A program made the position numbers and the translations under genes. DNA of 64,000 nucleotides from Novosphingobium sp. (GTDB lineage Bacteria > Pseudomonadota > Alphaproteobacteria > Sphingomonadales > Sphingomonadaceae). Positions 13,921 to 34,174 of this stretch are shown in pieces. Position 1 is the stretch's first letter, and every line of letters starts with the position of its first letter. The stretch is from assembly GCF_049240505.1 (NCBI RefSeq), contig NZ_JBMLSM010000005.1:7015-71014 (forward strand). The letters are read 5' to 3'. The notes below the pieces were generated by a model that saw only the letters and a program-made list of their open reading frames with translations, was not told the DNA's origin and ran no database searches.

Positions 13921-13949
13921 AAAAAAAGGGCGGCGAATGATCGCCGCCC
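13921..13949 (-). terminator. Orphan intrinsic terminator oriented for the minus strand
   Basis: The minus strand reads GGGCGGCGA-TCAT-TCGCCGCCC followed by TTTTTTT (plus-strand A-run 13921-13927). No annotated minus-strand CDS ends here. It lies ~125 nt upstream of the ACAD start. Confidence 0.6.
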
Positions 13950-14012
13950 CTGAAGTGTAAAGAACCCTGCATCTGCAGAGCCCTTCGGGTCGCAGGGAGG
14001 GGAATATCCAAA
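13921..14012 (-). ncRNA. Candidate small RNA or leader element (C-rich motif + stem-loop + terminator)
   Basis: The minus-strand transcript would read ..UUCCCCUCCCUGCGACCCGAAGGGCUCUGCAGAUGCAGGGUU..CAGGGGCGGCGAUCAUUCGCCGCCCUUUUUUU. It has a CCCUGC/GCAGGG stem and a terminal intrinsic terminator. The 5' end is not determined. Confidence 0.25.
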
Positions 14013-14166
14013 ACGGGCGGATTGTAATGTGCGCGTTTTCACACTTCGCACGCGCGAAATCGCACGACAGCGATGAAAATTGCCGTCATGCGAAGAAAAG
14101 CGGCGCCGTGGCGGGAAAGTGGCTCGACGATTTTCGCACTTGCGCTCAGCGATTCGTCAAGGTGCT

Positions 14167-14185
14167 ATTGCAAGCCATTCGCATT
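14167..14185. promoter_or_regulatory. Possible Fur-box-like operator upstream of the PepSY/receptor operon
   Basis: ATTGCAAGCCATTCGCATT matches about 13 of 19 positions of the alphaproteobacterial Fur consensus as I recall it (aaTGAgAAtcATTcTCAtt). It lies ~35 nt upstream of the PepSY gene start. The palindrome is imperfect. Confidence 0.25.
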
Positions 14186-14218
14186 GACGCCAGCGCTGTG
14201 CGGGCTTAGTGCGCGCCC

Positions 14219-15322
14219 GTGCAGAATCGAACGATCACCGCCTGGGCATGGGCTCATAAGTGGAGCAGCCTTGTCTGCACGCTGGCGCTGTTCATGCTGT
14301 GCCTGACCGGACTGCCGCTGATCTTCCATGATGAGATCGAGCACCTGTCCGAAAGTGGCGAGTTGCAGGGGGCTGCTTCGGCCCGGAGTGGGCAGCCGCT
14401 TGATGCGGTGGTGGCATCCGCGCTGGCGGACTATGCGCGCGCTGCCGGCAAGCCCGGCGTGCCGCTGTTCATCGGTTTCTCGCCCGACAATCCGTTGATC
14501 ACCGTAACAGTTGGGCCGCGTGCCGATGCGCCGGGATCTGAAATGCGGCTGTTCTCCTATGATCGAGCGAGCGGCGCGAACGTGGGTGAAGTTGTGGAGG
14601 ATGGGGTCATGGACTTCCTGCTGCAATTGCACACCGATCTGCTGCTGGGTCTGCCGGGAATGCTGTTCCTTGGCACGATGGCGGTGCTGTTCATCGTGGC
14701 GCTGGTGAGCGGAGTGGTGCTTTATGTGCCCTTCATGCGCCGCCTTGCCTTTGGCACGCTGCGGCACGACCGGTCGGCACGGGTGCGCAATCTGGATCAG
14801 CACAACCTGATCGGCGTGCTGGCGCTGGGCTGGATCGCGGTGATTGGCCTGACCGGCGCGATCAATGCTTTTGCCGACCCGCTTACCGATGTGTGGCGCG
14901 TGACCGAACTGGAAAGCATGGTGGCCAAGCAGGGCGGCCAGCCCGCGCTGGCCCCGGCGAACTATGGTTCGATCGACAGGGCAATGGCAGCGGCGCAGGC
15001 AGCGCTGCCGGGCCAGATGCCGCAGTTTATCGGCTTCCCCGGTGGCGCATGGTCATCATCCCGCCATTACGCGATCTTCTTTCAGGGCGATACGCCGCTG
15101 ACCAGCCATGTGCTGACCCCGGCGTTGGTCGATGCGGCCAGCGGCAGGCTGATCGATGTGCGCCCGATGCCCGCTTATATGCAGGCGCTGATGCTGTCGA
15201 AACCGCTGCACTTTGGCGATTACGGCGGGCTCATGCTCAAAATCGTATGGGCCTTGCTTACCGTGGGGACGCTGTGGGTACTGTGGACCGGACTGGTACT
15301 ATGGTGGGGCAAGCGCCGATGA
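14219..15322 (+). CDS. PepSY-associated TM-helix protein (PiuB/FoxB-like putative ferric-siderophore reductase)
   Basis: 367 aa with a GTG start. The N-terminus WAHKWSSLVCTLALFMLCLTGLPLIFHDEIE and four TM segments with conserved His are typical of the PepSY_TM family. It lies directly upstream of a siderophore-type receptor. Confidence 0.8.
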   Translation: MQNRTITAWAWAHKWSSLVCTLALFMLCLTGLPLIFHDEIEHLSESGELQGAASARSGQPLDAVVASALADYARAAGKPGVPLFIGFSPDNPLITVTVGPRADAPGSEMRLFSYDRASGANVGEVVEDGVMDFLLQLHTDLLLGLPGMLFLGTMAVLFIVALVSGVVLYVPFMRRLAFGTLRHDRSARVRNLDQHNLIGVLALGWIAVIGLTGAINAFADPLTDVWRVTELESMVAKQGGQPALAPANYGSIDRAMAAAQAALPGQMPQFIGFPGGAWSSSRHYAIFFQGDTPLTSHVLTPALVDAASGRLIDVRPMPAYMQALMLSKPLHFGDYGGLMLKIVWALLTVGTLWVLWTGLVLWWGKRR

Positions 15323-15519
15323 GCCGAACCGGCCAGCGGAGCGCAACAGCGATTCTTGGCGTTCCCCTATTCCTGGCCTTGCTGGCGCTGATCGGCCTTG
15401 TCCTGGGTCTGACCGGTGATGGCTGGCGCGATTTCGTTTCGGTGGCGCTGCTGGTGCTGCCCTGCCTGCTCTTTGTCATCCTCTGGCGTCGCCGCATCCG
15501 GCGCGCTGCCTTGAAATGA
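15319..15519 (+). CDS. Small two-TM membrane protein (66 aa), function unknown
   Basis: The ATG overlaps the PepSY stop (ATGA), and its stop overlaps the receptor-gene start region. It has two hydrophobic helices (ILGVPLFLALLALIGLVLGL, FVSVALLVLPCLLFVILW). Confidence 0.5.
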   Translation: MSRTGQRSATAILGVPLFLALLALIGLVLGLTGDGWRDFVSVALLVLPCLLFVILWRRRIRRAALK

Positions 15520-15530
15520 AAGCGAATATC

Positions 15531-17693
15531 ATGAACCGTCGCACATCGCTGCTGGTCGCTGCCGCGCTGCTTCCTCTTATGGCCACACCTGCCCTTGCGC
15601 AGGATGCTGCGGACAGTGACGGCGCCGACGACATCATCGTCAGTGCCAAGGCGCTGAACGCATCGCAGGTGATGGGCGAAGGCGATCTTGGCGCGCTGGG
15701 CCGCCAGCGGGCAGAGAACGTGCCTTTCACCATTCGTGCCTACAACGAAGCGCTGATTCTGAACCAGCAGCCTGTCACCCTGGGGCAGGTTCTGGAAAAC
15801 GATCCCACTGTTCGCACCAGCTACGGCTTTGGCAACGCTGCCGAACAGTTCGTGATCCGGGGCTTTGCCCTTTATGGTGACGACGTCGGCCTGAACGGGC
15901 TTTATGGTATCGCCCCGCGCCAGTTGATCGCTCCCGAACTATTCCAGTCGGTCGAAGTGTTGAACGGCGCATCGGCGTTCCTCAACGGTGCCGCCCCCGG
16001 TGGTTCGTCGATCGGCGGGGCGGTCAACCTCCAGTTGAAGCGCGCGGGTGATGTGCCGCTGACCCGCGCCACCCTTGGATATATCTCTGACCAGCATTTC
16101 GGCGGCAGCTTCGACATATCGCGCCGCATGGGCGATGATGGCGCTTTTGGCGTGCGCATAAATGGTGCGTTCCGCAGCGGCGATGTGGCAGTGGACGGCG
16201 AGTTCCGCCGAACTGCCGTGATCGGTGCGGCATTCGACTGGCGTGATGACAACACCCGCCTTTTCCTCGATCTTGGCTATCAGCGGGTGGAAGTGGATGG
16301 CCTGCGTCCCAAGGTGACGATCGGCACGGCCACGATCCCTACCGTGCCTGATGCCTCGGCCAACTATGCGCAGCCTTGGACCTACACTGATCTGCGCGAC
16401 ATTTTTGGCGTGCTGCGGTTCGAACAGGATCTGGGCGACAATGCCATGTTCCACATCAGCGCAGGCACGCGCGATGGCAGCGAAGAGGGCATCTATGGCG
16501 GCATCACCGTGTTGAACGCGACCACCGGTGCGGCCAACGGCAATGCCCTTTATGTGCCGCGCACGGACAACAACGAAGCCATCGAAGCGGGCTTCACGGT
16601 AAAGCTGGGCAGTGCGATCACGCATGAGTTCAACTTTGGCGGCAGCGCGGTGTGGCAGGTCAATCGCAACGCCTTCGATTTCCTTTATGGTCCCGGTTTT
16701 GCAGGCTTCGCCACCAACATCTATGATGCGCCTGAAGCGGCAATCCCGGCTTCGGCCTTTGTCGGCGGCGATCTGGATAATCCGTTCCCGATCAGCCGCA
16801 GCCGATTGCTGTCCGCTTTCGCGTCTGACACGGTGGGCCTCTTCGATGGCAAGGTGCTGATCACTGGCGGGCTTCGCCTGCAGGACATCGAGGTGAAAAG
16901 CTATAACGCCTATAACGGCGGCCTGTTGGACGGCACCTATCGGGAATCTGCGGCGACGCCGGTTGTCGGCCTGGTGGTGAAGCCACTGCCGGGGCTTTCA
17001 CTCTTCGCCAATCGCGTGGAAGCACTGCAACAGGGACCGACCGCGCCGATCGATGCGCTGGTGATCAATTCGGGCGAAGTGTTCGGGCCGATCCGGTCGA
17101 AGCAGTATGAAGTGGGCGGCAAGCTGCGCATGGGCCGGTTTGAAGCGGGGCTTTCGCTGTTCCGCATCGATCTGCCGGTCGCCTATTCGGTGGATGCCGG
17201 GACCGGCGACGGGCGCGTGCGCTTTGGCCTGAACGGGTTGCAGCGCAACGAAGGCGTGGAACTGACGCTCAATGGCGAACCGGTGGACGGCCTGCGCTTT
17301 ATCGGCGGTGCATCGGTGATCGATGCGAAGCTGCGCCGCACGCTGGGCGGGGCCAACCAGGGTAACCGCGCCGTGGGCGTGCCTGAATGGACCGGGAATG
17401 CCGGCGTGGAGTGGGATATCCCCTCAACCGGATTCACGCTGACGGGCCGCGTGGTTCACACTGGCAAGCAGGCCGTGAACGTAGCCAACACGCTGGAAAT
17501 CCCCGAATGGACACGCTTCGATCTGGGCGCACGTTTTGTCGCCAATGCTGGCGGCAAGCCACTGACGCTGCGCTTTGGCGTGGATAACGTGGCCAACAAG
17601 CGGTACTGGGCATCGGCATTCGATGTGTTCGCCGCCGCGCTGCTGCAGGGCCAACCGCGCACGTTCCGGGCCAGCGCGTCCATCGATTTCTGA
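15531..17693 (+). CDS. TonB-dependent siderophore receptor
   Basis: Signal peptide MNRRTSLLVAAALLPLMATPALAQ, TonB-box-like DDIIVSA, plug domain, and a beta-barrel ending ..FRASASIDF. An alternative ATG at 15516 is possible. Confidence 0.88.
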   Translation: MNRRTSLLVAAALLPLMATPALAQDAADSDGADDIIVSAKALNASQVMGEGDLGALGRQRAENVPFTIRAYNEALILNQQPVTLGQVLENDPTVRTSYGFGNAAEQFVIRGFALYGDDVGLNGLYGIAPRQLIAPELFQSVEVLNGASAFLNGAAPGGSSIGGAVNLQLKRAGDVPLTRATLGYISDQHFGGSFDISRRMGDDGAFGVRINGAFRSGDVAVDGEFRRTAVIGAAFDWRDDNTRLFLDLGYQRVEVDGLRPKVTIGTATIPTVPDASANYAQPWTYTDLRDIFGVLRFEQDLGDNAMFHISAGTRDGSEEGIYGGITVLNATTGAANGNALYVPRTDNNEAIEAGFTVKLGSAITHEFNFGGSAVWQVNRNAFDFLYGPGFAGFATNIYDAPEAAIPASAFVGGDLDNPFPISRSRLLSAFASDTVGLFDGKVLITGGLRLQDIEVKSYNAYNGGLLDGTYRESAATPVVGLVVKPLPGLSLFANRVEALQQGPTAPIDALVINSGEVFGPIRSKQYEVGGKLRMGRFEAGLSLFRIDLPVAYSVDAGTGDGRVRFGLNGLQRNEGVELTLNGEPVDGLRFIGGASVIDAKLRRTLGGANQGNRAVGVPEWTGNAGVEWDIPSTGFTLTGRVVHTGKQAVNVANTLEIPEWTRFDLGARFVANAGGKPLTLRFGVDNVANKRYWASAFDVFAAALLQGQPRTFRASASIDF

Positions 17694-17702
17694 CACGCAA
17701 AC

Positions 17703-17743
17703 AGCATCACCGGGCGGGGCTGAACGCTGCGTCCGGTGATGCT
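17703..17743 (+). terminator. Stem-loop downstream of the receptor gene (possible terminator)
   Basis: AGCATCACCGG...CCGGTGATGCT 11-bp stem. There is no clear U-tract. Confidence 0.4.
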
Positions 17744-17851
17744 GCATTGCAATAAAAGCGGGAACCCCTGCGCTGGGCGTGCATTCATCACGTTGAAAGC
17801 AAGCAGAAATTGGACCCCGCATTGGACCCGCAAGGCCCCCAAGCCGCAGAG

Positions 17852-18619
17852 ATGCGCGCGCCTGCACAGCGCGATCTCGATATTCCACCGTCGCAATTGC
17901 CAGCGCAAGCAGGGCTTTTTCTCGACTTTGACGGAACGCTTGTCGATCTGATCGATCGGCCCGATGCCGTGCAGGCCAATGCACGCGTGCGCGATCTGGT
18001 TGCTGCGCTGGCAGAGCGGCTTGATGGCAGGCTGGCCATCGTGACGGGGCGAGATGCGGACTTCGTGCGCAAGCAGCTTGGCCTGCAGTCCATAGGTATC
18101 GCCGGAAGCCACGGGCAGGAAATCCACTTTGCCGATGGCAGGTCCAGTGTGCCGGAAATCCCGCTGTCGCTGGCAGATGTTGCCATAGCCCTCGATCGTC
18201 TCGCACAGGCGCATCAGGGGCTTCTCGTCGAACGCAAGCCACTGGGCGTGGCGCTGCACTATCGCATGGTGCCTGAGCTGGAGGCGGCGAGTCTGGCCTT
18301 GGCGAGCGAATTGGCCGAGGCGCACGGGCTATACCTGCAACCTGGCAAGATGATGGTCGAACTGCGCGCACGCGGGGGCGACAAGGGCAGCGCGGTGGCG
18401 CGGTTTCTTGAAACGCCCCTGTTCGATCGCGCCGTGCCGATCATGCTGGGTGACGATCTCACCGACGAGCCAGGCTTTGCCGCTGCCGCCGCGCATGGTG
18501 GATGGGGTGTGCTGGTCGGCCCGCTGCGCAGGACGTCTGCCCGCTATCGTCTGGAAGGCGTTGGTGACGTGCTGGACTGGCTGGAAAGGGCGATCGCGCC
18601 CGTGAACATTGAGGCATGA
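17852..18619 (+). CDS. otsB: Trehalose-6-phosphate phosphatase
   Basis: HAD motif FLDFDGTLVDL, plus SGR and GDDLTDE motifs. The start is uncertain (ATG 17852 versus TTG 17810). Confidence 0.88.
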   Translation: MRAPAQRDLDIPPSQLPAQAGLFLDFDGTLVDLIDRPDAVQANARVRDLVAALAERLDGRLAIVTGRDADFVRKQLGLQSIGIAGSHGQEIHFADGRSSVPEIPLSLADVAIALDRLAQAHQGLLVERKPLGVALHYRMVPELEAASLALASELAEAHGLYLQPGKMMVELRARGGDKGSAVARFLETPLFDRAVPIMLGDDLTDEPGFAAAAAHGGWGVLVGPLRRTSARYRLEGVGDVLDWLERAIAPVNIEA

Positions 18620-20394
18620 GCATGGAATTGTGGCCCATCGGCAATTGCCACGTTTCCGCGCTCGTTGACGAGGCTGGACGGTTCGTCTGGGCCTGCGTGC
18701 CGCGCGTGGACGGTGATCCGTTGTTCAGCGCGCTGCTGGGCGGAGAAGCGCCAGAGAGCGGGCTGTGGGACATTGCGCTGGAAGGCGTGGTCGTCACCTC
18801 GCAGCATTATGTGCGCAATACCCCGATCCTTGTTACCCGGCACGAAGACGGTCACGGCAACGCCATCGAAGTGACCGACTTCTGCCCATTCTACCGGCAT
18901 TCCGGGCGCACCTTCCGCCCGGTGGCCTTTGCGCGCATCGTTCGGCCCGTCAACGGAAGCCCGCGCATCACGGTGCGCCTTCGCGCCACGCGCGATTGGG
19001 GCCGCCCCTCGCCCGGCGTGATCGGCGGAACCAGCCATATCCGCTATCCCGGCCCGGCCATGACCATGCGGCTGACCACCAGCGCGCCTGTGGGCATGGT
19101 GGCCGAAGAGCGCACGTTCCGGCTGGAGCGGCCCCTGCATTTCTATCTTGGGCCGGACGAGAGCTTTACCGGCAATATCGCCCATACCATCGACGAGATG
19201 CTGGAGCGGACCTGCGTGGAATGGCGCGGCTGGGTGCGCGGCCTTGCCATCCCGCTGGAGTGGCAGGACGCGGTGATCCGTTCCGCCATCACGCTGCGGC
19301 TGTGCCAGCACGCGGAAACCGGGGCGATCGTGGCGGCGCTGACCACCTCCATTCCCGAACATGCCGGGTCCGAACGGAATTGGGACTACCGGTATTGCTG
19401 GATCCGAGATGCCTATTACACGGTGCAGGCGCTGAACCGGCTGGGCGCGCTCGACGTGCTGGAGAACTACCTCTCCTATCTGCGCAATATCGTTGACGAT
19501 GCCAAGGGCGGGCACATTCAGCCATTATACGGCGTGCTGGGCGAAGCGCGGCTGGAAGAAGGCTTTGCGCCCGACCTGCCCGGCTATCGCGGCATGGGGC
19601 CGGTGCGCGTGGGCAATCAGGCCTATGAGCAGATCCAGTACGACGCCTACGGCCAGATTGTGCTGTCGAGCGCGCAGGCGTTCTTCGACCAGCGCCTGCT
19701 GCGCCCCGCAGGAATCGAGGATTTCGAGGCGCTGGAAAAGGTGGGTGAGCGCGCATGGGCCAGCCACGATCAGGCCGATGCAGGCCTGTGGGAATTGCGC
19801 ACGCGGCAATCGGTCCATACTTATTCCTCGGCGATGTGCTGGGCCGCCTGCGACCGGTTGGGCAATATCGCCACCACGCTGGGGCTGCAGGATCGTGCCG
19901 CGCTGTGGAACGACCGTGCGGCGACGATCCGCGCAACCATCGAGACTTCGGCATGGCGCGAGGACACGCAGCGCCTTTCCGCCACGTTCGCGGGTGACGA
20001 TCTGGACGCCAGCGTGCTGCAATTGCTCGACCTGCGCTTCCTCGCTCCTGACGATCCGCGTTTTCTTTCAACGCTCACCGCCATCGAGCAAGGTCTGCGG
20101 CGCGGTTCGCACATGCTGCGCTATGCTACCGAGGACGATTTCGGCCTGCCGCAGACAGCGTTCAACGTCTGCACCTTCTGGCTCATCGAGGCGCTGCATC
20201 TGACCGGACGGACGGATGAAGCGCGCTCCCTATTCGAGGAAATGCTGATGCGACGCACGAAATCGGGTCTTCTGTCCGAAGACATCGACCCTGTTACTGG
20301 CGAGTTGTGGGGCAATTTCCCGCAGACTTATTCGCTGGTCGGCATCATCAACTGCGCAGGGCTTTTGAGTAAACCTTGGACGTCGATCCGATGA
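18616..20394 (+). CDS. Glycoside hydrolase family 15 protein (glucoamylase/trehalase-like)
   Basis: 592 aa with ERNWDYRYCWIRDA, LWELR and FNVCTFW motifs of the GH15 (alpha/alpha)6 barrel. The ATGA overlap with otsB indicates translational coupling. Confidence 0.85.
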   Translation: MSMELWPIGNCHVSALVDEAGRFVWACVPRVDGDPLFSALLGGEAPESGLWDIALEGVVVTSQHYVRNTPILVTRHEDGHGNAIEVTDFCPFYRHSGRTFRPVAFARIVRPVNGSPRITVRLRATRDWGRPSPGVIGGTSHIRYPGPAMTMRLTTSAPVGMVAEERTFRLERPLHFYLGPDESFTGNIAHTIDEMLERTCVEWRGWVRGLAIPLEWQDAVIRSAITLRLCQHAETGAIVAALTTSIPEHAGSERNWDYRYCWIRDAYYTVQALNRLGALDVLENYLSYLRNIVDDAKGGHIQPLYGVLGEARLEEGFAPDLPGYRGMGPVRVGNQAYEQIQYDAYGQIVLSSAQAFFDQRLLRPAGIEDFEALEKVGERAWASHDQADAGLWELRTRQSVHTYSSAMCWAACDRLGNIATTLGLQDRAALWNDRAATIRATIETSAWREDTQRLSATFAGDDLDASVLQLLDLRFLAPDDPRFLSTLTAIEQGLRRGSHMLRYATEDDFGLPQTAFNVCTFWLIEALHLTGRTDEARSLFEEMLMRRTKSGLLSEDIDPVTGELWGNFPQTYSLVGIINCAGLLSKPWTSIR

Positions 20395-21797
20395 GCCGCC
20401 TGATTGTCATCTCGAACCGCGTCAGCGCGGGCGGCGGGGCGCAGGGCGGACTGGCTGTGGCGCTGTCGGCCGCATTGCGCGCCAATGGCGGCATCTGGTT
20501 TGGCTGGTCGGGCGAGGTTACCGAACAATTCACCGGCCACATCAATTTCCAGCGCACCGATGGCGTCGCCACCGCCACGGTCGATCTGGAAGAACAGGAC
20601 GTCGAGGAATACTACAACGGCTATGCCAACCGCACGCTCTGGCCGCTGTTCCACTATCGCATCGATCTGGCCGAATACGAGCGCAGCTTTGCCGGCGGCT
20701 ATGAACGCGCGAACCAGCGCTTTGCCGAGACCGTGCTGCCGCTGATCGAACCGGAAGATGTGGTGTGGGTGCAGGATTACCACATGATCCCGCTGGGCCG
20801 CGAATTGCGCAACCGGGGCATCAGGAACCGCATCGGCTTTTTCCTGCATATCCCCTGGCCCCCGCGCCGCCTGCTGGGCACCCTGCCCGAAGCCGCTGCG
20901 CTGGTGGAAACGCTGTTCGCCTATGACGTGATCGGGTTCCACACGCAGGAATGGCTCGATTCCTTCGTCGATTTCGTGAAGGCAGAGATGGGCGCGACGG
21001 TGGACGACAACGGCATTGTCCGCTGCAATGGGCGTAGTGTGCGCCTTGTCGCCTGCCCCATCGGCATCGATGCAAGCGCGTTCGAAGAGATGGCCCGCAG
21101 CCTGACCGCGCGCCGCACCTATGAAAAAGTGCGTGCCAGCCTTGTCGGGCGGGCGCTTATCGTGGGCGTCGATCGGCTCGATTATTCCAAGGGACTGGAA
21201 GAGCGGTTTCTGGGCTACGAACGCTTTCTGGCAGAGCACCCGGAAGAGCGTAACAGTCTGGTTCTGCTCCAGATCGCGCCGCCATCGCGCGGGGCGGTGG
21301 AAAGCTATCAGCGTATCCGGTCGACGTTGGAAGGCCTTGCCGGACGGATCAACGGCGCTCACGCCGAACTCGATTGGGTGCCCATCCGCTATGTCAATCA
21401 GGGCTACCCACGCGATGTGCTGGCAGGCGTCTATCGCGCGGCGAAGATCGGCCTCGTCACACCGTTGCGCGATGGGATGAATCTGGTGGCCAAGGAATAT
21501 GTCGCGGCGCAAGACCCGGATGATCCGGGCGTCCTGATCCTATCGCGCTTTGCCGGGGCGGCAGAACAGATGCCGGAAGCCTTGCTGGTCAACCCATACA
21601 GCGCCGAAGAACTATCGGACGCCCTGCAACACGCGCTGCGCATGTCGCTGACTGAACGCAAGATGCGCTGGAGCGCAATGATCGAAGACGTGCGCCGCCG
21701 CGACGTGATGTGGTGGCTGGAAAGCTTCCGCGAATGTCTGGAAGCAGACGATGTGGAAGATGGCAAGGTGACAGAACTCAACCGTTCGGTGGCTTGA
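20391..21797 (+). CDS. otsA: Alpha,alpha-trehalose-phosphate synthase (UDP-forming)
   Basis: MSRLIVISNRV..GGLAVAL..WFGWSG, VWVQDYHMIPL, FFLHIPWP and LRDGMNLVAKEY are all OtsA hallmarks. The ATG at 20391 overlaps the GH15 stop (ATGA). Confidence 0.92.
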   Translation: MSRLIVISNRVSAGGGAQGGLAVALSAALRANGGIWFGWSGEVTEQFTGHINFQRTDGVATATVDLEEQDVEEYYNGYANRTLWPLFHYRIDLAEYERSFAGGYERANQRFAETVLPLIEPEDVVWVQDYHMIPLGRELRNRGIRNRIGFFLHIPWPPRRLLGTLPEAAALVETLFAYDVIGFHTQEWLDSFVDFVKAEMGATVDDNGIVRCNGRSVRLVACPIGIDASAFEEMARSLTARRTYEKVRASLVGRALIVGVDRLDYSKGLEERFLGYERFLAEHPEERNSLVLLQIAPPSRGAVESYQRIRSTLEGLAGRINGAHAELDWVPIRYVNQGYPRDVLAGVYRAAKIGLVTPLRDGMNLVAKEYVAAQDPDDPGVLILSRFAGAAEQMPEALLVNPYSAEELSDALQHALRMSLTERKMRWSAMIEDVRRRDVMWWLESFRECLEADDVEDGKVTELNRSVA

Positions 21798-21918
21798 ATC
21801 GGCCAGAACTGCTCCGAAGCCCCGGCATTCGTGCGCCAACGCACAGCGGCGCACCATGCTTTGCAGGATAGCGCATTTGCAGGTAGCGTGATTCTGGGCA
21901 GCACGGGGAGTACGAGGC

Positions 21919-23907
21919 ATGGCCTCGCAAGCGGGCGGTGGACAGTTCGGTGGCGGTTCGGGCCAAGGGGCCGGTGCAACATCTGCCTGGTCGCGCATGG
22001 CCAACAATTCGCTGAACCTGCTGGACCCGCAAAGACCTGCGCCGCTGCTTTTGCCCGCACCCGCGCAAACGCCCGCTTCCGCCCCGACAGCAAAGCCTGT
22101 CCCCGTACCTGCATCCTGCCCGGTCCCCCCGCCTGCCCCGCTGAAAACGGTGCAATCCTGCCCATTGCGCCAGCAGAGCAGCGGCGTGGCTGGTTTGCTG
22201 GCGCCGCCCAAGCCACAGTCGCTGGAACCATGCGATCTCAACGCGATGACGATTTCACTGCCGCCGCCGGATGAAACGCTGTGGGCGCGCTTTACATCGC
22301 AGAACTGGTTGGGAAAGCTGATCAAGGAGAAACCCGCCAGCGGTTTCCAGACGATCACGTTAGCACCGCTGGATGGGATGCCGGTCCCTCCGGCACGGAT
22401 CAGCGGGCGCGTGAAACTGCGCACGGTCGATCTACAATTGGTCGCGCCGGTTGAAGGCAGCCGCAAGGGCGAACCAAAAAAAATCAAAGTCAAGCTGGAG
22501 CCGGGGCCGGGTTTTTGCGGTGCGAAATCCCATCCCGATCTTTCGATCGAACCGGTGCCGAAGGGGCTTTCCAGCCCCATGCATGGGCGCACCTCGTGTG
22601 AATTCAGCGTTCTTGCTGCGCCGATTACCGATCCTGTGATCAGTTCCAAGCTCACGCCACTGGCGTTTCTTGCCGCGCTCATCCGCAAAACGGATCTTTC
22701 CCGAACTTATACAATCAGTTCGGATTCCTGCGGCAACCGTAATTCGTCGCAGGCCGTCAGCGGGATGTCCTGCAAGATCAAAGTACTGCCGGAAAAGCTT
22801 CTGATCGTGAAGTTGAGCTTCCCGGAATCGATCAGCGGGTCTTTGTCGGTTTCGAAAACGACGACGACCAACAAAAATGCGGGCGCGCAGACGCGGACCG
22901 TGGAAAAGAAGATCGAGGGCGAATTTACCAATCAGTATGCAGGGCGGGATGCACGGGGTGTCGCCCTGGATGGCGGCAAGGCCAGCCTTTCGGACAAGCA
23001 GATCACAGTCACCGACAAAAGTGGTATGGTGACACAGGTTTCCCAGCAGGAAGCGAAGATCGGCCGCACGATTGACCGCAAGGGCGCGGGCACTTTCGAC
23101 ACGACCCACACGTATGGCTCCGTTGATATGCTTGATCCGGCTTCAGGCGCGTCCAGCGGTTCGTTGTACAAGAACGTAAAGAGCGATGATGGTTTGGGCT
23201 ATGTCGCGGGCATCGGCGTGTCGGTCGAACACGATGGCGTTGAACTGGGCGCATCGTTCAAGGACTTCGTGGAATGGATATCGATGGCCAAATCGGTCAT
23301 CGATGGAGCGGACAAGCTTGGCAACTGGCTGAATCGCAGCGTGCAGATCGGCTGGAAAGTGACCGGCTCGGTCAAGGCGCTGTCGGGTGAAGTCAAAGTT
23401 GTCTGGGGAATCAAACAGCTCCCCGACGAAGCGTTGGTCGGTCGCTATTTCGGGGCGGAACTTGAAATCACTATTATCGATGCCGCGCTGGAAGTCAGTT
23501 TCGGTCTTTGCGTGGCATTCCCTGGTTTGGCCGATGATGAAGATCTGCTTTCTGCCAGGATTATCGGCACGCTCTCTGGCAGCGTAAAACTCAAGGGCTC
23601 TTACGAAGAACTGACCAATTCGCCCGTCGTTGGGCGGACGGCCACCGTGACCGGCGCGGTGACGCTGAAGCTGGAAGGCAACATTGTTGCAGCCAAGATC
23701 ATCCATATCTCTGCCGATGTCAGTGGTGGCGTTCAGGCAGTTGGCAAGTGGGACGGCAGCATCGGTCAACCGCCAGAATCGAACATTTCGGTTGGTCTCA
23801 CGCCTGTAGAAGCGAACGCATCGGTCAAAGTGTTCTTCTGGACGCGCAAGTATGGCCCGGCCACGCTCATCGGTGAGACCGAGCCGTTTTACGAAGTAAA
23901 GCTTTGA
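21919..23907 (+). CDS. Hypothetical protein, 662 aa: Gly-rich N-terminus, Pro/Ala-rich linker, large Ser/Thr/Lys-rich beta-type C-terminal region
   Basis: Long ORF with GGGGAG 8 nt upstream of the ATG, followed by two tightly coupled ORFs. I recognise no family motif and no signal peptide. The N-terminal boundary is uncertain because the first ~100 codons are low complexity. Confidence 0.6.
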   Translation: MASQAGGGQFGGGSGQGAGATSAWSRMANNSLNLLDPQRPAPLLLPAPAQTPASAPTAKPVPVPASCPVPPPAPLKTVQSCPLRQQSSGVAGLLAPPKPQSLEPCDLNAMTISLPPPDETLWARFTSQNWLGKLIKEKPASGFQTITLAPLDGMPVPPARISGRVKLRTVDLQLVAPVEGSRKGEPKKIKVKLEPGPGFCGAKSHPDLSIEPVPKGLSSPMHGRTSCEFSVLAAPITDPVISSKLTPLAFLAALIRKTDLSRTYTISSDSCGNRNSSQAVSGMSCKIKVLPEKLLIVKLSFPESISGSLSVSKTTTTNKNAGAQTRTVEKKIEGEFTNQYAGRDARGVALDGGKASLSDKQITVTDKSGMVTQVSQQEAKIGRTIDRKGAGTFDTTHTYGSVDMLDPASGASSGSLYKNVKSDDGLGYVAGIGVSVEHDGVELGASFKDFVEWISMAKSVIDGADKLGNWLNRSVQIGWKVTGSVKALSGEVKVVWGIKQLPDEALVGRYFGAELEITIIDAALEVSFGLCVAFPGLADDEDLLSARIIGTLSGSVKLKGSYEELTNSPVVGRTATVTGAVTLKLEGNIVAAKIIHISADVSGGVQAVGKWDGSIGQPPESNISVGLTPVEANASVKVFFWTRKYGPATLIGETEPFYEVKL

Positions 23908-23914
23908 AGGACAT

Positions 23915-24721
23915 ATGATGTACGCCATCAAGGCCGATAGCCGCAACGTGCGGGCAACTGCTTCGCTCAACGACGTGCCGCTTGCTTCGCTGACGGGCAC
24001 CAATGTTGGCAACGTGATCGAATTTGCGGGCCGCTGGCTTGAGGATGGCGAGAACCGGCTGCGCATTACCGTCCACGGACCCAGCGTGCTGCGAGGCGGC
24101 GATCCCGGCTTCGTGGGGTCGGATGGGCAGCCGCTCGGCTCCGCGCTCGACGAAGCCGAAGCGTGGGTACAGGTCCACCGTCTGCCGCCGGACTTTACCG
24201 GAGGCGAAGTAAACGGCGAGGTTGTGGCAGAGGCGCGTTGGCGAATTGCCGATGTGCAGGGCGAACCGACTTTCCCCACCGGTGCGGAAAACCGCTTTCT
24301 GGCCGCTGCGCTGCCGGGAATGCGCTGGCGCAATTCCCGCCTTCCCGCCGATCCGGCATCCGCGCGACCGCAGTTGATCGCCTGGCTGCGCGGGCTTGCC
24401 GCGTCGCTTGAACAGGGAGACAGCAACGCGTTGGTCAACGCGGCAGAGCCGGGCATTCGCGATACCTGCGCGGCCATCGGACAGAACGCCGATCAGCAGC
24501 TCGAAGGTTTCCGCGCGATGCTGCAGGATGAAGCGCGCGGCCTGCGCCTGCTACCTTTCCGTGACGAGGACGTGCGGATTGAACCGATCGCGTATGGACG
24601 ATTGCTCTTGTGCAGTCGCTCTGATGGCACGCCCCTGCTCCGCGCTGGCCCCGGCAGTGCGACCGATTTCGAGATCGAAATCCGCGCAGGTATGATCAGC
24701 AATGGCTGGGTGATGTTCTGA
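23915..24721 (+). CDS. Hypothetical protein, 268 aa
   Basis: The ATG lies 7 nt after the upstream stop and is preceded by GAAGGA. Amino-acid composition looks ordinary for a protein. No recognisable motif. Confidence 0.6.
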   Translation: MMYAIKADSRNVRATASLNDVPLASLTGTNVGNVIEFAGRWLEDGENRLRITVHGPSVLRGGDPGFVGSDGQPLGSALDEAEAWVQVHRLPPDFTGGEVNGEVVAEARWRIADVQGEPTFPTGAENRFLAAALPGMRWRNSRLPADPASARPQLIAWLRGLAASLEQGDSNALVNAAEPGIRDTCAAIGQNADQQLEGFRAMLQDEARGLRLLPFRDEDVRIEPIAYGRLLLCSRSDGTPLLRAGPGSATDFEIEIRAGMISNGWVMF

Positions 24722-25068
24722 TGCTGGCGATATCGCCTGGCGTTTCAGCCGCCTTTGCCGCCCAGCGCATTCCCGAAGTTGCGCTGCAAATGGCCGAAGT
24801 GATCGCCACGGCCAACCCCGATCTTGCCGCCACGATGCCCCGCGATGAACTGAATAGACGCGCGTTGGCAGGCACGCAGGTCTCAGAGCATTATGGCATG
24901 CAATCGTCGCGCGATATCATGCTGCTGTGTCTGGCTCACGCAATATTCGGGCCGGATATGCTTTTCCGCCCGGGTTTCGAATGGGTTGCGCCCTTGTTGC
25001 AGGAACCGGTCGAAGGGTCTGACACGCGCGCCTATCGCCTTCACCTGCGCCTCTCTGAGCTGGGGTAA
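24721..25068 (+). CDS. Hypothetical protein, 115 aa, predicted mostly helical
   Basis: The start overlaps the upstream stop by 1 nt (TGATG). Two hairpins follow it. No recognisable motif. Confidence 0.5.
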   Translation: MLAISPGVSAAFAAQRIPEVALQMAEVIATANPDLAATMPRDELNRRALAGTQVSEHYGMQSSRDIMLLCLAHAIFGPDMLFRPGFEWVAPLLQEPVEGSDTRAYRLHLRLSELG

Positions 25069-25093
25069 GCGCCAGTTTCCTCGGAACAAAAAA

Positions 25094-25124
25094 GGCGGGC
25101 GGATCCAATAGGATACCGCCCGCC
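25094..25124. terminator. Intrinsic-terminator hairpin 1 between convergent genes
   Basis: GGCGGGCGGATCC-AATA-GGATACCGCCCGCC stem-loop, preceded by an A-run on the plus strand. The A-run gives a U-tract for minus-strand transcripts. Confidence 0.65.
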
Positions 25125-25129
25125 CGATT

Positions 25130-25162
25130 GCCGACCTGCTGATAGGAAGCACGCAGGTCGGC
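25130..25162. terminator. Hairpin 2 between convergent genes
   Basis: GCCGACCTGC...GCAGGTCGGC perfect 10-bp stem, 13 nt after the TonB-receptor stop (minus strand). Confidence 0.55.
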
Positions 25163-30027: not shown

Positions 30028-31260
30028 ATGATCCTGCTATCGGTGGCGATCCTGATCGTCATCTTTGCCGCTGCCGTCTGGCTGCCGGTCAACATGGGGC
30101 TGATCGGCCTTGCCGCTGCGCTGGGCCTTGGCGTTTTCGTCGGCGGCCTTTCGGTGAAGGACGTGCTGGCGGGCTTCCCGACCGATCTGTTCCTGACGCT
30201 GCTGGGCATCACGTACCTGTTCGGCATCGCCAGCCGCAACGGCGCGATAGACTGGCTGGTGGCGCGTGCTGCCGCGCTGCTGGGTCGGCATACGGCGCTC
30301 CTGCCCTTGCTCGTCTTCGTCGTTGCCGGCGTGCTGACAGCGCTGGGCGCGGTCGGCCCCGCTGCGGTTGCCGTGGTCGCGCCGATTGCGCTGCGCTTTG
30401 CCCGCAGTCATGGATTCTCGTCCCTGATGATGGGCCTGCTCGTGGTCCACGGCGCGCAGGCGGGCGCGTTTTCGCCCATCTCGATCTATGGCGGCATCAC
30501 CAACAAGGTTCTGGCGTCCAGCGGGATAGAGCCTGATCCGACGTATCTGTTCCTCGCCAGCGCCGCCTTCAACGCCGCGCTGGCGCTGGTGATCTGGGCC
30601 TTCTATGCGCGCCGCGAAGCTGCCAGTGGCGTTACGCACGAAGGCATCGCAGAAGCGCCCCCTGTTCTGGGCCGCGACGGTGCGTGGACGCTGGTCGGCC
30701 TTGCCGCGCTGGCCATCGGCGCACTGCTGTTCAAGATCGACATCGGCTTCATGGCGCTCATGGTGATCCTTGCGCTGGCCATCGTCGCCCCGCGCACACA
30801 GGACGGTGCGCTGAAACAGGTCGATTGGTCCACGATCCTGCTGATTTCGGGCATCGTCATCTATGTGGGCCTGATGGAAAGGCTGGGCACGCTGGCCGCT
30901 GTCAGCGACATGATCGGACAGGTCGGCTCACCGGCTCTGGCGGTATTGCTGCTGTGTTATCTGGCAGGCGTCGTCTCGGCTTTCGCTTCGTCCACCGCAT
31001 TGCTCGGCGTGATGATCCCGCTGGCGGTGCCGCTGCTGGCGGGATCGCAGCTATCGGTCATGGCGGTGATATCGGCGCTGTGCATCGCCAACACCATCGT
31101 CGATACGTCCCCCTTCTCGACCAACGGCGCGCTGATCGTCGGCAATTCGCCCGAAGCCGAACGTCCCGCAATGCTGCGCAAACTGCTGGGCTATGCTGCA
31201 TTGATCGTGGGCGTGGGGCCGCTGCTGGCCTGGGCGGTGTTTGTGCCGATCTTTCAATAG
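30028..31260 (+). CDS. matC: MatC-type dicarboxylate (malonate) carrier
   Basis: 410 aa, polytopic. GFPTDLFLTLLGITYLFGIA..GAIDWL and VVHGAQAGAFSPISIYGGITN resemble the MatC family as I recall it. GGGAGGGGG lies upstream of the ATG at 30028. Confidence 0.7.
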   Translation: MILLSVAILIVIFAAAVWLPVNMGLIGLAAALGLGVFVGGLSVKDVLAGFPTDLFLTLLGITYLFGIASRNGAIDWLVARAAALLGRHTALLPLLVFVVAGVLTALGAVGPAAVAVVAPIALRFARSHGFSSLMMGLLVVHGAQAGAFSPISIYGGITNKVLASSGIEPDPTYLFLASAAFNAALALVIWAFYARREAASGVTHEGIAEAPPVLGRDGAWTLVGLAALAIGALLFKIDIGFMALMVILALAIVAPRTQDGALKQVDWSTILLISGIVIYVGLMERLGTLAAVSDMIGQVGSPALAVLLLCYLAGVVSAFASSTALLGVMIPLAVPLLAGSQLSVMAVISALCIANTIVDTSPFSTNGALIVGNSPEAERPAMLRKLLGYAALIVGVGPLLAWAVFVPIFQ

Positions 31261-31300
31261 GATTCTTGCCATTGCGCAAGCGTTCGACAATGCTGCGCCG

Positions 31301-34174
31301 ATGGGAAGGATTGCTGGCAAAAGGCTGTGCGTCGTAATCGGCGCGGTGGCAATCGGGCTTGGCATCGGAACGGCTCATGCCGAGCCGACGGTGCAGCAGC
31401 GCGCAAAGCTGGACACGATGTTTGCCGCCGCCGATGCGCTGGATGAAGGGGCGGATCCCGCAGCCTATCGCAAGGCCTTCGAACAGGTTCTGGCTTATGG
31501 TCGCACGCTCTATCCCGAAGGCCACGCCGAACTGGCATGGCTTGAGGCAGAACTTGCCACCGCCGATTATCTGCAGGGCGATGTGAAGGGCGGCGCTGCC
31601 CGGCTTGAACGCATTGCAACCGTGCTTGATGCTGCGGGGCCGCAGTGGCGCGAACGGCGGATGCTCGTCGCCAATGCGCAAGTCGTCATGTATCTGACGC
31701 TGAGCGAGTTCGAAAAGGCAACTGCGCTTGGTCAGCAGGTGCTTGACTGGCGCGTGGCCACATCGGGCGGGCAGCCCAGCACCAATCTTGCGGCTGCATG
31801 GTCCAACCTTGCCAACGCGCAGATCCGCAATGGCGAGACGGACCGCGCCATTGCCAGCGTGCGCGAAGCGATTGCCATCGACCGCCGCCTATCGCCCATA
31901 CCCGTCAATGCCGCGCCGCATTTTGCCAATCTCGTCACGTTCCTCTATTCTTCGGGCAGGCTTGAAGAAGCGGCTGAGGAAGGACGCAAGGCGCAGGCGT
32001 TGCTGGAAAGTTTCCTGCCCGAAAAGCACCCGTTCCTTGCTGTCAATCTCAACACACTGGCCCGCGTGCTGATGGACCTTGGACGCCTGGACGAAGCCGA
32101 GGACGTGGCGCGCAGGGGTATGGATCTGGCCTATGCGCGCTTCGGCGAAAGCCAGCAAACATTGAGCTACGTGGCCACGCTCGCCAATATTCTTGCCGCA
32201 AATGGCAAGGTGGCAGAGGCGCAGAACCTTGCCCGCGCGGCGGCGGACAAGATGGTGCAGGATCTGGGGAGCGAGGCCGATCGCGCCCTGCTCGCGCGGG
32301 AAACGCTGGCCCTGACATTCGCTGCAGAAGGCGATACGGACCGTGCGCTGGCAGAATATGCGACGGTATCCGACGTGCGCACCCGCCGCTATCCGCCGCA
32401 CCATCGTGAAAGGATCGATGGGGAAGATCGCCTTGCCATTGCCGCTTTCGAGGCGGGCGATCCTGCGCGGGCGCGCGCTGTGCAGCAAGGCGCGCAGGAT
32501 TTGCGCAAGGCGGGCGGCATGATGGCCGATAATGCCGCGCTGGTGGGTGAAGCGCGGCTTGCGGCGTTCGAAGTGTTTGCCGATGCCGGTGGTCAAGATG
32601 CGCCGACAGGGCTTGCCCGCGCCCTTGCCGCCGCCTCCGGGCTGGACCTGCGCCTGCGCGAACTGGAAGCGACCGGGGCGCGCCGGTCCGGGCTGGACCG
32701 TTCATTGCGCACCGGCTTTGGCTGGGCGCTGGAAGCGGCGGCGCAGGCGGGCGATGTGGCGCAGGCCTTTGCTTTGGCGCAGCCGGTGGTCGAAGGCTCA
32801 GCCGGGATTGCCGCCCGCGCTGCCGCGCGCCGGATGGCCGCGCTCGATCCAGCCAGGGCCGCGCTCTTGCGCGAACGGCAGGATGCGGCGGTGGCGGTGC
32901 AGGCCCTGCTCGACAGGCAATTGCGCCTTGCCGGACAAGGCGCCGCGCCAGATCGGCTTGTTGCGCTTGAGGCAGAGCGCACCGCCGCCACTGCGCGGCT
33001 TGACGCCCTGACGGCTCAAGTGGCTGAAATCGCGCCCGAACTGGTGCGCAGTGAAGTGACCGACCGGCTTACTTTGCCTGCCGCGCAGGGTTTGCTGCAC
33101 AAAGACGAAGCGCTGCTGATTGTCGCGCCGGGGCCACAGGGGCTGGTCATCATCGCGGCCAATGGCAAGGCGGCGGTCGTCGTGCGCAGCGGAACGTCGC
33201 GCCGCGCTGCCAACTTGGTCAAAAAATTGCGCAAGAGTCTGGAAACGCAGGGCAATTTTGATCATGCCGCCAGCGCGGAACTGCGCGGTATGGTCCTGCC
33301 TGCAGCCGTCGCCCACATCATCGGTAAGCGCAGGCGCGTGCTCATTTCAGCAGGTGGTGCGTTTTCCTCGCTGCCCTTTGCCGTGCTGGCAGGCGGCAGT
33401 GCAGAACGACCGCGTTGGTTGGTGGAAGATCACGCACTCGTAACTTTGCCCAGCCTCGCCACAATGTCTGCCAAGCCTCGGGAAGCGCACGAGAAACCGC
33501 GTGCTTACCTTGCGCTTGGTGCGCCGCAGCTTGGGCGTGATGGTCTCCAGCTTGCCAGCGCCACCCCCTTCCGCTCCGCCGCGAATGCGCAGCGCCTCGC
33601 CGATCTCCCGCCCCTTCCCGCCAGCGCTGCGGAACTGGCCGCATTGGGCCGGGCGCTTGGCGCGCGGGAAAGCACGGTGCTGACGGGGGGAGACGCGACC
33701 GAGGCGGCGTTGATCGGCGCGGACATGGCGCAGGTCGATGTTCTTGCGCTTTCGACGCACGGGCTTGTTGCCGGAGAGATCGACGGGCTGCACGAACCTG
33801 CGCTGGTGCTGACCCCGGCGGGCGAAGGGGATGGGCTGCTGACGGCGGACGAGATCATGAACCTCAGGCTTTCTGGGGCCTGGGTGGTTCTATCGGCCTG
33901 CAACACAGCCGCCGGTTCAGGCATCGACGGAAGCGGGCTTGGCGGATTGGCGCGGGCTTTTCTACACGCCGGGGCGGGCAACCTGCTGGTTTCGCACTGG
34001 GCGGTGCGCGATGATGTGGCGGCGCGATTGTCGGTCGAAACGCTGTCGCAATTCGCGCGGGGAAGCGATCCGGCGACGGCACTTCAGCGGGCGATGCTGG
34101 CGATGGCAAAAGGGCGTGATGCAGGCCTGCGTGACCCCGCGCTATGGGCGCCTTTCGTGTTCGTAGGACGCTGA
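31301..34174 (+). CDS. Secreted TPR-repeat / CHAT-domain (caspase-like) protein
   Basis: Signal-like N-terminus GKRLCVVIGAVAIGLGIGTAHAE and a long helical TPR-like region. The C-terminal CHAT domain carries a His/Cys dyad context (VLALSTHGLVAG ... VVLSACNTAAG). Confidence 0.8.
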   Translation: MGRIAGKRLCVVIGAVAIGLGIGTAHAEPTVQQRAKLDTMFAAADALDEGADPAAYRKAFEQVLAYGRTLYPEGHAELAWLEAELATADYLQGDVKGGAARLERIATVLDAAGPQWRERRMLVANAQVVMYLTLSEFEKATALGQQVLDWRVATSGGQPSTNLAAAWSNLANAQIRNGETDRAIASVREAIAIDRRLSPIPVNAAPHFANLVTFLYSSGRLEEAAEEGRKAQALLESFLPEKHPFLAVNLNTLARVLMDLGRLDEAEDVARRGMDLAYARFGESQQTLSYVATLANILAANGKVAEAQNLARAAADKMVQDLGSEADRALLARETLALTFAAEGDTDRALAEYATVSDVRTRRYPPHHRERIDGEDRLAIAAFEAGDPARARAVQQGAQDLRKAGGMMADNAALVGEARLAAFEVFADAGGQDAPTGLARALAAASGLDLRLRELEATGARRSGLDRSLRTGFGWALEAAAQAGDVAQAFALAQPVVEGSAGIAARAAARRMAALDPARAALLRERQDAAVAVQALLDRQLRLAGQGAAPDRLVALEAERTAATARLDALTAQVAEIAPELVRSEVTDRLTLPAAQGLLHKDEALLIVAPGPQGLVIIAANGKAAVVVRSGTSRRAANLVKKLRKSLETQGNFDHAASAELRGMVLPAAVAHIIGKRRRVLISAGGAFSSLPFAVLAGGSAERPRWLVEDHALVTLPSLATMSAKPREAHEKPRAYLALGAPQLGRDGLQLASATPFRSAANAQRLADLPPLPASAAELAALGRALGARESTVLTGGDATEAALIGADMAQVDVLALSTHGLVAGEIDGLHEPALVLTPAGEGDGLLTADEIMNLRLSGAWVVLSACNTAAGSGIDGSGLGGLARAFLHAGAGNLLVSHWAVRDDVAARLSVETLSQFARGSDPATALQRAMLAMAKGRDAGLRDPALWAPFVFVGR

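Follow-up and report, generated by a model that had tools for sequence, protein, structure and literature searches.

A three-gene module of sphingomonads with distant relatives linked to type VI secretion

Three adjacent genes, here called A, B and C, lie in a 64-kb stretch of a Novosphingobium sp. contig (NZ_JBMLSM010000005.1, positions 7,015 to 71,014; this whole stretch is the window), and none of their products matches a described family. Here, we report that A is a member of a sizeable unannotated protein superfamily, some distant members of which carry delivery domains of type VI secretion systems (T6SSs) or are encoded within T6SS clusters, that a homolog of B follows A in all three groups of this superfamily, and that the trio is maintained under purifying selection in sphingomonads. 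We put at about even the chance that the window trio is a headless orphan copy of a T6SS-type effector module, in which A would be the effector, B its immunity protein or partner, and C an accessory protein.

Results

Gene A belongs to an unannotated superfamily

None of the three products had a family match in Pfam, NCBIfam, PADLOC or PHROGs (for the PADLOC defence models, no family at E ≤ 1), and PDB sequences compared with the single sequences and with 66- and 11-sequence profiles gave only noise. The first-pass annotation of this DNA, which could not place any of the three products in a family, was therefore right on this point. RHS/YD repeats and the Rhs core likewise found no Pfam or NCBIfam match in A or in 54 of its relatives. 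A word-index search of 5.8 billion clusters recovered three relatives of A and five of B; with a 66-sequence profile the index still returned the same four A proteins only, indicating that more distant members are beyond its reach. When 1.84 billion representatives (clusters at 50% identity) were searched exhaustively by HMMER with a four-sequence A profile, 102 of them passed E ≤ 1e-3, 25 passed E ≤ 1e-10 and 7 passed E ≤ 1e-30, nearly all being 500-670 amino acids (aa) long. A profile built from 54 superfamily members aligns end to end with the members, and BLAST places all 96 full-length proteins in one cluster comprising three groups: group I with 46 representatives, group II with 31, and group III with 8, the latter being the sphingomonad clade that includes the window protein. 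Identity between groups is 15-20%. Members of named origin belong to Novosphingobium, Porphyrobacter, Sorangium, Plesiocystis and Nannocystis; with few exceptions, their annotation reads 'hypothetical protein' or refers to the head domain alone. The operon had initially been described as an orphan; it is unannotated, yet its largest product has about 100 superfamily cluster representatives and the trio itself recurs in several sphingomonads.

Conservation among the 96 members is concentrated in two regions. On the N-terminal side, C105 (91%), D106 (86%), C200 (71%), H205 (95%), C271 (99%), G272 (95%) and R274 (80%) are conserved, together with C81 (74%), which sits in the tail that precedes the N-domain. 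In the beta-rich region, the conserved positions are P302 (92%), G478 (100%), W479 (85%), G490 (94%), W496 (93%) and G529 (99%). With regard to a possible clan CD-like cysteine peptidase, which would have a His-then-Cys dyad at strand ends and a caspase-like alpha/beta fold, H205 precedes C271 in conserved order, C271 being part of an SCGxR motif and located directly after a predicted strand; no peptidase family or fold was matched. Judging from these conserved residues, H205 and C271 could form a thiol-hydrolase-type site with D106. Alternatively, C105, C200, H205 and C271 could constitute a structural metal (Cys3His) site.

Distant members are linked to type VI secretion

Eight members carry a recognisable N-terminal head: a PAAR_motif domain in P0022, P0046 and P0050, a Tox-PAAR-like/DUF4150 domain in P0037, P0076 and P0103, and a LysM domain in P0026 and P0061. 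In headless members, the conserved PCD motif is preceded instead by 19-107 residues of variable, low-complexity sequence, and domain scans detected no family domain shared by the bodies of A members.

Four distant loci connect the superfamily to T6SS genes or effectors. P0034 is flanked by genes for TssM, TssL, two TssK, DUF4123 and PAAR proteins on one side and for VgrG and ClpV on the other. In this locus (ENA ERZ1426839, a 56-kb contig), successive genes encode proteins of 116, 587, 266, 115, 668 (A) and 259 aa, a run that looks like two tandem small-A-B modules, with only the 668-aa protein confirmed as an A member. P0081 was considered as the 587-aa neighbour and rejected, as it comes from a different contig. 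P0018, in a run of 101, 592 (A) and 272 aa, lies beside TssK, TssJ, Hcp and PAAR genes. The Sorangium protein P0026 adjoins VgrG, two DUF2169 proteins, a Tox-PAAR-like protein, an AHH toxin, Imm11 and Imm49, while P0061 adjoins a Tae4 effector, beyond which lies a BREX system. Swappable PAAR, PAAR-like and LysM heads, location in T6SS clusters or effector islands, a downstream gene that co-diverges with A and a small gene upstream together make up the signature of a polymorphic T6SS effector.

Two further features were observed in the distant loci. In Sorangium sp. So ce131 (L015), the A-B pair is followed by a gene for a 1471-aa Kelch-repeat/TSP3-repeat protein (13287-17702). In the T6SS-embedded locus L016, an unannotated 107-aa Cys-rich open reading frame (ORF; CxC...CxxC...CxxC, 8957-9280) that matches no Pfam family separates the gene of a predicted secreted 256-aa protein from the C-like gene.

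A homolog of B follows A throughout the superfamily, and C-like genes occur in distant loci

B is an acidic protein (pI 4.9) devoid of hydrophobic segments, and neither a signal peptide nor a transmembrane segment was found in any B homolog examined. Wherever a locus continues beyond A, a B homolog comes directly downstream, in all three groups (L001-L003, L005-L012, L014, L015, L016 and L017). Aligned with B by hhalign, the gene after A reached a probability of 97.9% in Sorangium (E 5e-13), 94.2% in L014 and 93.0% in L016. By these comparisons, B co-occurs and co-diverges with A across the superfamily, as would a cognate downstream gene of an effector.

C is present in all sphingomonad loci. 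Scanned against all ORFs of at least 50 aa in all loci, the C profile gave two matches outside the sphingomonads, one in L014 and one in L016, each being the small gene immediately upstream of A. The 140-aa gene in L014 matched with a profile E of 1e-4 and an hhalign probability of 89% (E 2e-6), the small gene in L016 only marginally (profile E 6e-3, hhalign 38%); in L018, a similarly placed 134-aa ORF aligns collinearly with C, not significantly. The T6SS-linked loci thus have a small gene ahead of A-B, C-like in L014 and marginally so in L016, an order that would have been rearranged to A-B-C in sphingomonads.

The same homologies suit another reading, namely that A, B and C together make up a conserved complex, accessory or structural, that is associated with the spike of certain T6SSs, following a logic like that of the Tvp proteins. 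In sphingomonads, its copies would be remnants or would serve a distant T6SS. All three proteins seem to be homologous over deep divergence (15-20% identity between groups for A, hhalign 93-98% for B), which is more machinery-like than expected of fast-evolving immunity. Fusion to PAAR also fits a structural protein bound to the spike, no toxin fold was recognised, B is cytoplasmic, and multi-protein sets around PAAR/DUF4150 proteins have recently been described (PMC13373197). However, several sphingomonad copies sit in housekeeping contexts with no T6SS gene nearby, and two successive small-large-midsize runs in one T6SS cluster, one of them with a confirmed A member, look like an effector array. 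The LysM heads and the Tae4, AHH and Imm neighbours are features of effector islands, and DUF2169 and the VgrG-like domain are absent from A, B and C. On balance, an accessory complex seems rather unlikely.

The trio is conserved as a unit in sphingomonads

The A-B-C trio was found in at least six sphingomonad contexts (Porphyrobacter, Novosphingobium and metagenomes), always with the same order and coupling. It lies between otsA and a TonB-dependent receptor gene in the window, with the same otsBA context throughout the window lineage (L005-L008), between lepA and bamD in a Porphyrobacter metagenome-assembled genome (GCA_018991295.1) and a JGI contig, next to rpsL in one ENA contig, and between a radical-SAM gene and an Nramp transporter gene in a Novosphingobium relative; two short contigs complete the set. 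In the Novosphingobium relative (strains encoding WP_145960504.1), A is 32% identical to the window protein, and its two partners align with B and C at hhalign probabilities of 100% and 99.4%. Across sphingomonad contexts, identity is 32-49% for each of the three proteins, and every contig with one word-index relative of A or B, two Logan contigs among them, has all three genes in the same order. A metagenome scan with sphingomonad patterns gave no result and a second one yielded two short contigs; the broad alignment provided no usable conserved stretch. Measured against L005, which is closely related, the dN/dS ratio is 0.14 in A, 0.12 in B and 0.08 in C, indicating that all three are real, constrained coding genes. 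Co-occurrence, a check proposed in the first-pass annotation, is thus borne out: the trio is kept together, and under purifying selection.

The conserved residues and these flanks could also point to a secreted metal-binding or metal-scavenging effector, comparable to the metallophore-type T6SS proteins that work together with TonB-dependent receptors. The N-domain region has a conserved set of four Cys, one His and one Asp, which would act as the metal site; a TonB-dependent receptor gene converges on the window copy, and the Nramp gene on that of Novosphingobium. But the flanks vary by lineage (lepA/bamD, rpsL and others), so that adjacency to transporters is probably due to chance. Moreover, a tightly coupled and conserved cytoplasmic partner is unexpected for a harmless metal binder, and no metal-binding family was matched in Pfam or NCBIfam. 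We regard this explanation as very improbable.

In the Porphyrobacter genome (JAGKSZ010000002.1, L001/L004 8275-10197), the deposited 541-aa A protein KAF27_00065 seems to lack part of its N-terminus: the ORF and the tblastn match reach to about 8275-8362, giving about 610-640 aa as in other members. In the same way, the 235 aa deposited for B fall short of the 261 aa encoded by the ORF that starts at 10205. Synteny between the window and L005 is broken at about 14090-17740, where the window has some 3.6 kb more between the acyl-CoA dehydrogenase/APH genes and otsB. In this window-only segment, positions 14219-15322 encode a PepSY_TM protein and positions 15516-17693 a TonB-dependent receptor; in L005, otsB directly follows the acyl-CoA dehydrogenase gene.

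A is predicted to be a mosaic protein with a large beta-sheet body

The AlphaFold2 model of A, computed with a 54-sequence alignment, has a mean predicted local distance difference test score (pLDDT) of 75.9 and a predicted template modelling score (pTM) of 0.66. It divides the protein into the segments listed in Table 1, a low-confidence first 100 residues and a beta-rich remainder, in line with the mosaic organisation without signal peptide that had been read from the sequence. The tail includes a short, low-confidence predicted helix (residues 23-34, 'AWSRMANNSLNL'). The N-terminus, MASQAGGGQFGGGSGQGAG..., has no hydrophobic h-region, and neither a signal peptide nor a transmembrane helix was found in A, the top 19-residue hydropathy window (1.7) falling in a beta-strand. 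In total, the model contains about 15 long antiparallel strands, those at the C-terminus being 17-26 residues long, and hhalign detected no internal duplication among the sub-domains. The C-terminal part carries the conserved motifs (P)QVGWK, G490, W496-G497 and F528-G529. Strands 305-420 are almost wholly polar. In strands 544-612, the fraction of hydrophobic residues at alternate positions is 0.64/0.18, 0.78/0.25 and 0.78/0.11. Such hydrophobic/polar alternation also occurs in soluble sandwiches.

The structure comparison that the first-pass annotation had suggested for A and B yielded no significant neighbour: Foldseek found nothing at E ≤ 1e-3 for the A model in PDB and BFVD, nor for the B model in PDB. 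The B model (AlphaFold2, 6-sequence alignment; pLDDT 74.1, pTM 0.63) predicts a beta-sandwich at the N-terminus, then three helices and a sheet. For A, the top-ranked neighbours were autotransporter beta-domains (BrkA/EspP, probability up to 0.89), porins, TonB-dependent receptors and BPI/LBP. None of the best barrel matches was significant (E ≥ 1.5e-3, TM-score ≤ 0.23, root-mean-square deviation > 24 Å), and the low TM-scores and high deviations show that the likeness is one of generic long hairpins.

These neighbours bear on a reading in which A would be secreted on its own, as a beta-pore-forming or surface beta-sheet protein exported independently of T6SS, with B and C as export or folding helpers. 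Besides the nature of the top PDB hits, this reading would account for the long antiparallel strands and the clean alternation of the C-terminal ones, and a type I secretion system (T1SS) with an RTX protein is encoded 10-20 kb upstream in the window. Yet the barrel matches are neither significant nor superimposable, A has no signal peptide, lipobox or C-terminal repeats of the RTX/T1SS type, and the middle beta region is too polar to span a membrane. The PAAR heads of its relatives imply injection rather than Sec/Bam export. In addition, the soluble cytoplasmic nature of B suggests an action of A inside the cytoplasm or from it, or a need to neutralise A there, which argues against a pore former that acts in the periplasm or is exported by Sec. 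The resemblance to beta-pore-forming or surface beta-solenoid proteins suspected from the sequence remains a tentative one, and we hold this alternative to be improbable.

Organisation and expression signals of the locus

The positions of the three same-strand ORFs agree with those first proposed, as do the 7-nt gap between A and B (23908-23914) and the 1-nt TGATG overlap, by which C is translationally coupled to B (Table 1). A second in-frame ATG of gene B, at 23918, corresponds to where the close homolog P0005 (267 aa) starts. As had been noted, the unit lies between the otsA stop and two strong hairpins. The hairpin pair has a minimum free energy of -55.8 kcal/mol (z = -6.98; 0 of 200 shuffles fold equally well), lacks a T-run, hence was not called by a simple terminator scan, and is a probable bidirectional terminator region. 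On the other side, neither a sigma-70-like promoter nor a terminator was found in the 121-nt otsA-A spacer, so that read-through from otsA into A is possible, and a self-contained transcription unit can only be presumed.

The genes preceding otsA are otsB and a GH15 gene, named through Pfam matches of the syntenic L005 genes. With the listed starts, otsB and the GH15 (glucoamylase-like) gene overlap by 4 nt and the GH15 gene and otsA by 19 nt, forming a compact trehalose operon (17810-21797) that abuts the 5' side of the cassette.

Table 1. Positions of the trio, of the predicted segments of A and of neighbouring signals in the window
Feature	Position	Strand	Comment
otsA	20376..21797		directly upstream of A; named from the syntenic L005 ortholog with Glyco_transf_20
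otsA-A spacer, 121 nt	21798..21918	+	from sequence; nearly identical in the close relative L005
Shine-Dalgarno-like GGGGAG	21905-21910	+	8 nt 5' of the gene A ATG
Gene A	21919..23907	+	ORF, 662 aa
A residues 1-100, Gly-rich and Pro/Ala-rich tail	21919..22218	+	pLDDT 37-59; position of the PAAR/DUF4150/LysM heads in distant members
A residues 105-275, alpha/beta N-domain	22231..22743	+	holds the Cys/His/Asp cluster (C105-D106, C200, H205, C271-G272-x-R274); pLDDT 65-96
A residues 282-443, polar Ser/Thr/Lys/Gln-rich eight-strand beta-meander	22762..23247	+	most variable part of the family, few conserved columns; strands E282-E438
A residues 445-471, single long helix	23251..23331	+	DSSP on the AlphaFold2 model; low pLDDT, 42-58
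A residues 476-651, seven amphipathic strands of 11-26 residues	23344..23871	+	mostly pLDDT 81-95; best conserved and most confidently modelled
Gene B	23915..24721	+	ORF, 268 aa
Gene C	24721..25068	+	ORF, 115 aa
Two adjacent stacked GC-rich hairpins	~25094-25162	no strand	between gene C and the convergent TonB-dependent receptor gene

Base composition and mobility

In 500-nt windows, GC content drops to 0.556-0.58 over 22250-24000, compared with 0.62-0.66 on both sides, and the 1750-nt stretch of lowest GC in the entire 64 kb starts at 22201-22301 (0.569 against a mean of 0.624 with a standard deviation of 0.018, that is about 3 standard deviations below). By gene, GC is 58.5% in A, 64.7% in B and 60.6% in C, and GC at third codon positions is 0.67 in A against 0.72-0.78 in the neighbours. 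The composition visibly below that of the surroundings, reported from hand counts, is therefore real, modest and limited to A, and it is explained in part by codons for Lys, Ser, Thr and Ile (GC at first codon positions 0.59). Pfam scans of 20 window genes revealed no mobility or phage gene, and the search for flanking repeats or att-like sites around the cassette returned short chance matches only. By tblastn, A, B and three distant members had no match in 72,556 plasmids, nor A in 50,697 phages. Since its flanks differ from lineage to lineage, the cassette has evidently moved, by a vehicle that is not visible as a mobility gene or repeat. The horizontal acquisition proposed earlier is thus plausible from the varied flanks and the GC dip in A, but no mobility gene or flanking repeat accompanies it.

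In comparison with L005, A and its upstream spacer (window 21820-23900, L005 8000-9990) are 96.5-99.5% identical, except for 91% in the bin of the Pro-rich linker, whereas the flanking otsA and GH15 genes, as well as B and C, are 88-96% identical. Synonymous divergence (dS) is 0.067 in A against 0.24-0.52 in the neighbours, a value 4-8 times lower, which suggests that A alone has undergone recent recombination or a sweep, or that its synonymous sites are constrained.

A module that has been decoupled from secretion in sphingomonads would fit some of these data. It could operate as an intracellular toxin-antitoxin-like, abortive-infection or stress module, where A would be a latent effector damaging membranes or proteins, with B acting to inhibit or sense it and C as a modulator. 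The window A is headless with no injection genes within reach, both partners are cytoplasmic, and the cassette occupies different chromosomal sites and has a GC dip in A, like an accessory island. The lower synonymous divergence of A suggests recent allele exchange, which is common in conflict genes, and one distant member (P0061) is near a BREX system. However, a Tae4 T6SS effector intervenes between BREX and the P0061 module, no PADLOC defence model was matched, no phage-related or mobility gene lies nearby, and such a function has no precedent within the A superfamily. This possibility appears unlikely to us.

Other features of the window

Several features of the window lie apart from the cassette. 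A 994-aa RTX-repeat protein (HemolysinCabind, E 6e-41) is encoded near a type I secretion set made of an ABC transporter, an HlyD-family adaptor and a TolC-like outer-membrane efflux protein (1090-4074, 7045-11488). At 4085-4162 (-), a small RNA of the mmgR/suhB family (RF00519, 45 bits, above the gathering score) marks the replicon as alphaproteobacterial. Positions 31241-35369 encode a 977-aa TPR and CHAT (caspase-like) protein followed by a 393-aa protein without Pfam family, which could be a signalling or defence-type pair. Finally, no Pfam family was matched at E ≤ 1e-5 by two further sizeable ORFs with good coding signal, 44441-45895 (484 aa) and 56791-59214 (-) (807 aa).

Discussion

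A proposed effector module separated from its injection machinery

We propose that the trio, divergent and headless, derives from an ancient T6SS-type effector module. A would be a toxin-type effector whose disordered tail occupies the place where its relatives bear a delivery head. The Cys/His/Asp cluster of its N-domain may provide a thiol-dependent catalytic site or a metal site, and its beta-sheet body, strongly amphipathic in the C-terminal half, could engage membranes. B, soluble, cytoplasmic and encoded directly downstream of A, would serve as the cognate immunity or neutralising protein, and C as a chaperone or adaptor for A, its gene having switched from upstream of A to downstream of B. 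The window copy would have inserted between otsA and the TonB-dependent receptor gene. With no head on A and no T6SS gene in the 64 kb, it would either be loaded onto a spike encoded elsewhere or function independently of T6SS. In this respect, complete T6SSs exist in some sphingomonads, such as on the chromid of Novosphingobium terrae (10.1101/2021.09.13.460193). The suggestion of the first-pass annotation, a toxin/immunity/chaperone set or another accessory system, is favoured by the heads of distant members, their T6SS loci, the B homologs and the C-like genes, and is partly supported overall.

Several observations weigh against this interpretation. No homolog of Hcp, VgrG, TssK, TssJ, PAAR or DUF2169 proteins is encoded in the window or in the sphingomonad loci, Pfam scans of 20 window genes revealed none either, and the window A has no PAAR, MIX, FIX or other known loading marker. 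The linkage to T6SS consists of four distant loci and eight headed members out of about 96, and is not a systematic census. Neither Foldseek with the A and B models nor the family scans recognised a toxin domain or fold, and no B-only 'orphan immunity' genes were found. B, and probably C, are homologous across the whole superfamily, which suits a conserved accessory complex equally well, and the homology of C outside sphingomonads, judged by profile comparison, is moderate in L014, marginal in L016 and not significant in L018.

If the effector reading is correct, it would give a name to a currently invisible effector superfamily of about 100 clusters at 50% identity, spread over Myxococcota, sphingomonads and uncultured taxa, in which the partner protein is defined and a small protein is a candidate for a new adaptor. 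The T6SS field would gain a new toxin body, without structural precedent, with a Cys/His/Asp site and possibly a membrane-engaging beta-sheet. The sphingomonad clade would then constitute a natural experiment, in which an effector module has parted from the injection machine. If the trio is instead an accessory complex, it would provide a new conserved set of components for T6SS spike biology. A broader proposal, which we advance tentatively and consider doubtful, is that A, B and C represent a new and widespread three-component T6SS effector system with an unseen fold, the body of A uniting a thiol/His active or metal site and a large amphipathic beta-sheet, and that the sphingomonad cassette is a stand-alone version, escaped from the T6SS, that moves between chromosomal sites. 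Such a cassette would point to a new delivery route or to a new intracellular function, for example self-targeting, defence or injection-free kin discrimination.

Comparison with known systems

Distant A members share with specialised and cargo T6SS effectors the PAAR, DUF4150 or LysM head, the low-complexity linker, the shared body, the conserved downstream gene and the small upstream gene. By contrast, fusion or adjacency to PAAR, VgrG or Hcp, a feature of effector families, is seen in distant members only: the window A is headless and has no T6SS gene nearby. Its body of about 550 aa has no known toxin domain or fold, B is homologous superfamily-wide, and the small gene is at the 3' end of the operon in sphingomonads.

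Long antiparallel next-neighbour beta-meanders with amphipathic strands, as predicted for A, are found in membrane beta-barrels and beta-pore-forming toxins; A differs from these by the absence of a signal peptide or Bam-type export logic and by a sheet of which half is highly polar. TpeX, which is colicin-like and alpha-helical, was rejected as a relative, as were Tvp and Vai1, whose domains are unrelated. At the level of organisation, the Tvp spike-assembly accessory complexes (TvpA/DUF2169, TvpB and the VgrG-like TvpC around DUF4150/PAAR proteins; PMC13373197) resemble the trio as a conserved multi-protein set tied to PAAR/DUF4150 and VgrG, and the Sorangium A homolog adjoins DUF2169 and Tox-PAAR-like genes. 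These genes are, however, separate neighbours on the opposite strand, and no DUF2169, Phage_GPD or related domain was found in A, B, C or the scanned family members.

The closest functional analogue in the literature, compared here through its published description only, appears to be TsxE/TsxI (MXAN_5572/5571) of Myxococcus xanthus, a validated T6SS effector-immunity pair (PMC5801462). TsxE has a LysM domain, replaced by PAAR in its Nannocystis homolog, and its immunity protein is described as 'with no conserved features' (PMC5801462). The A superfamily displays the same swap between LysM and PAAR heads in the same taxa, its members being found in Sorangium, Nannocystis and Plesiocystis. The two differ in their bodies: TsxE is reported to contain an amidohydrolase-2 domain (PMC5801462), whereas no Amidohydro_2 signal was detected in A (E ≤ 1), in 54 and 20 further members, or in the LysM-headed subgroup (E ≤ 10). 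T6SS effector-immunity modules are already known, and our findings overturn nothing established. What would be new here is a sizeable unannotated family with a three-gene core, without structural precedent, and with a clade no longer located near T6SS genes.

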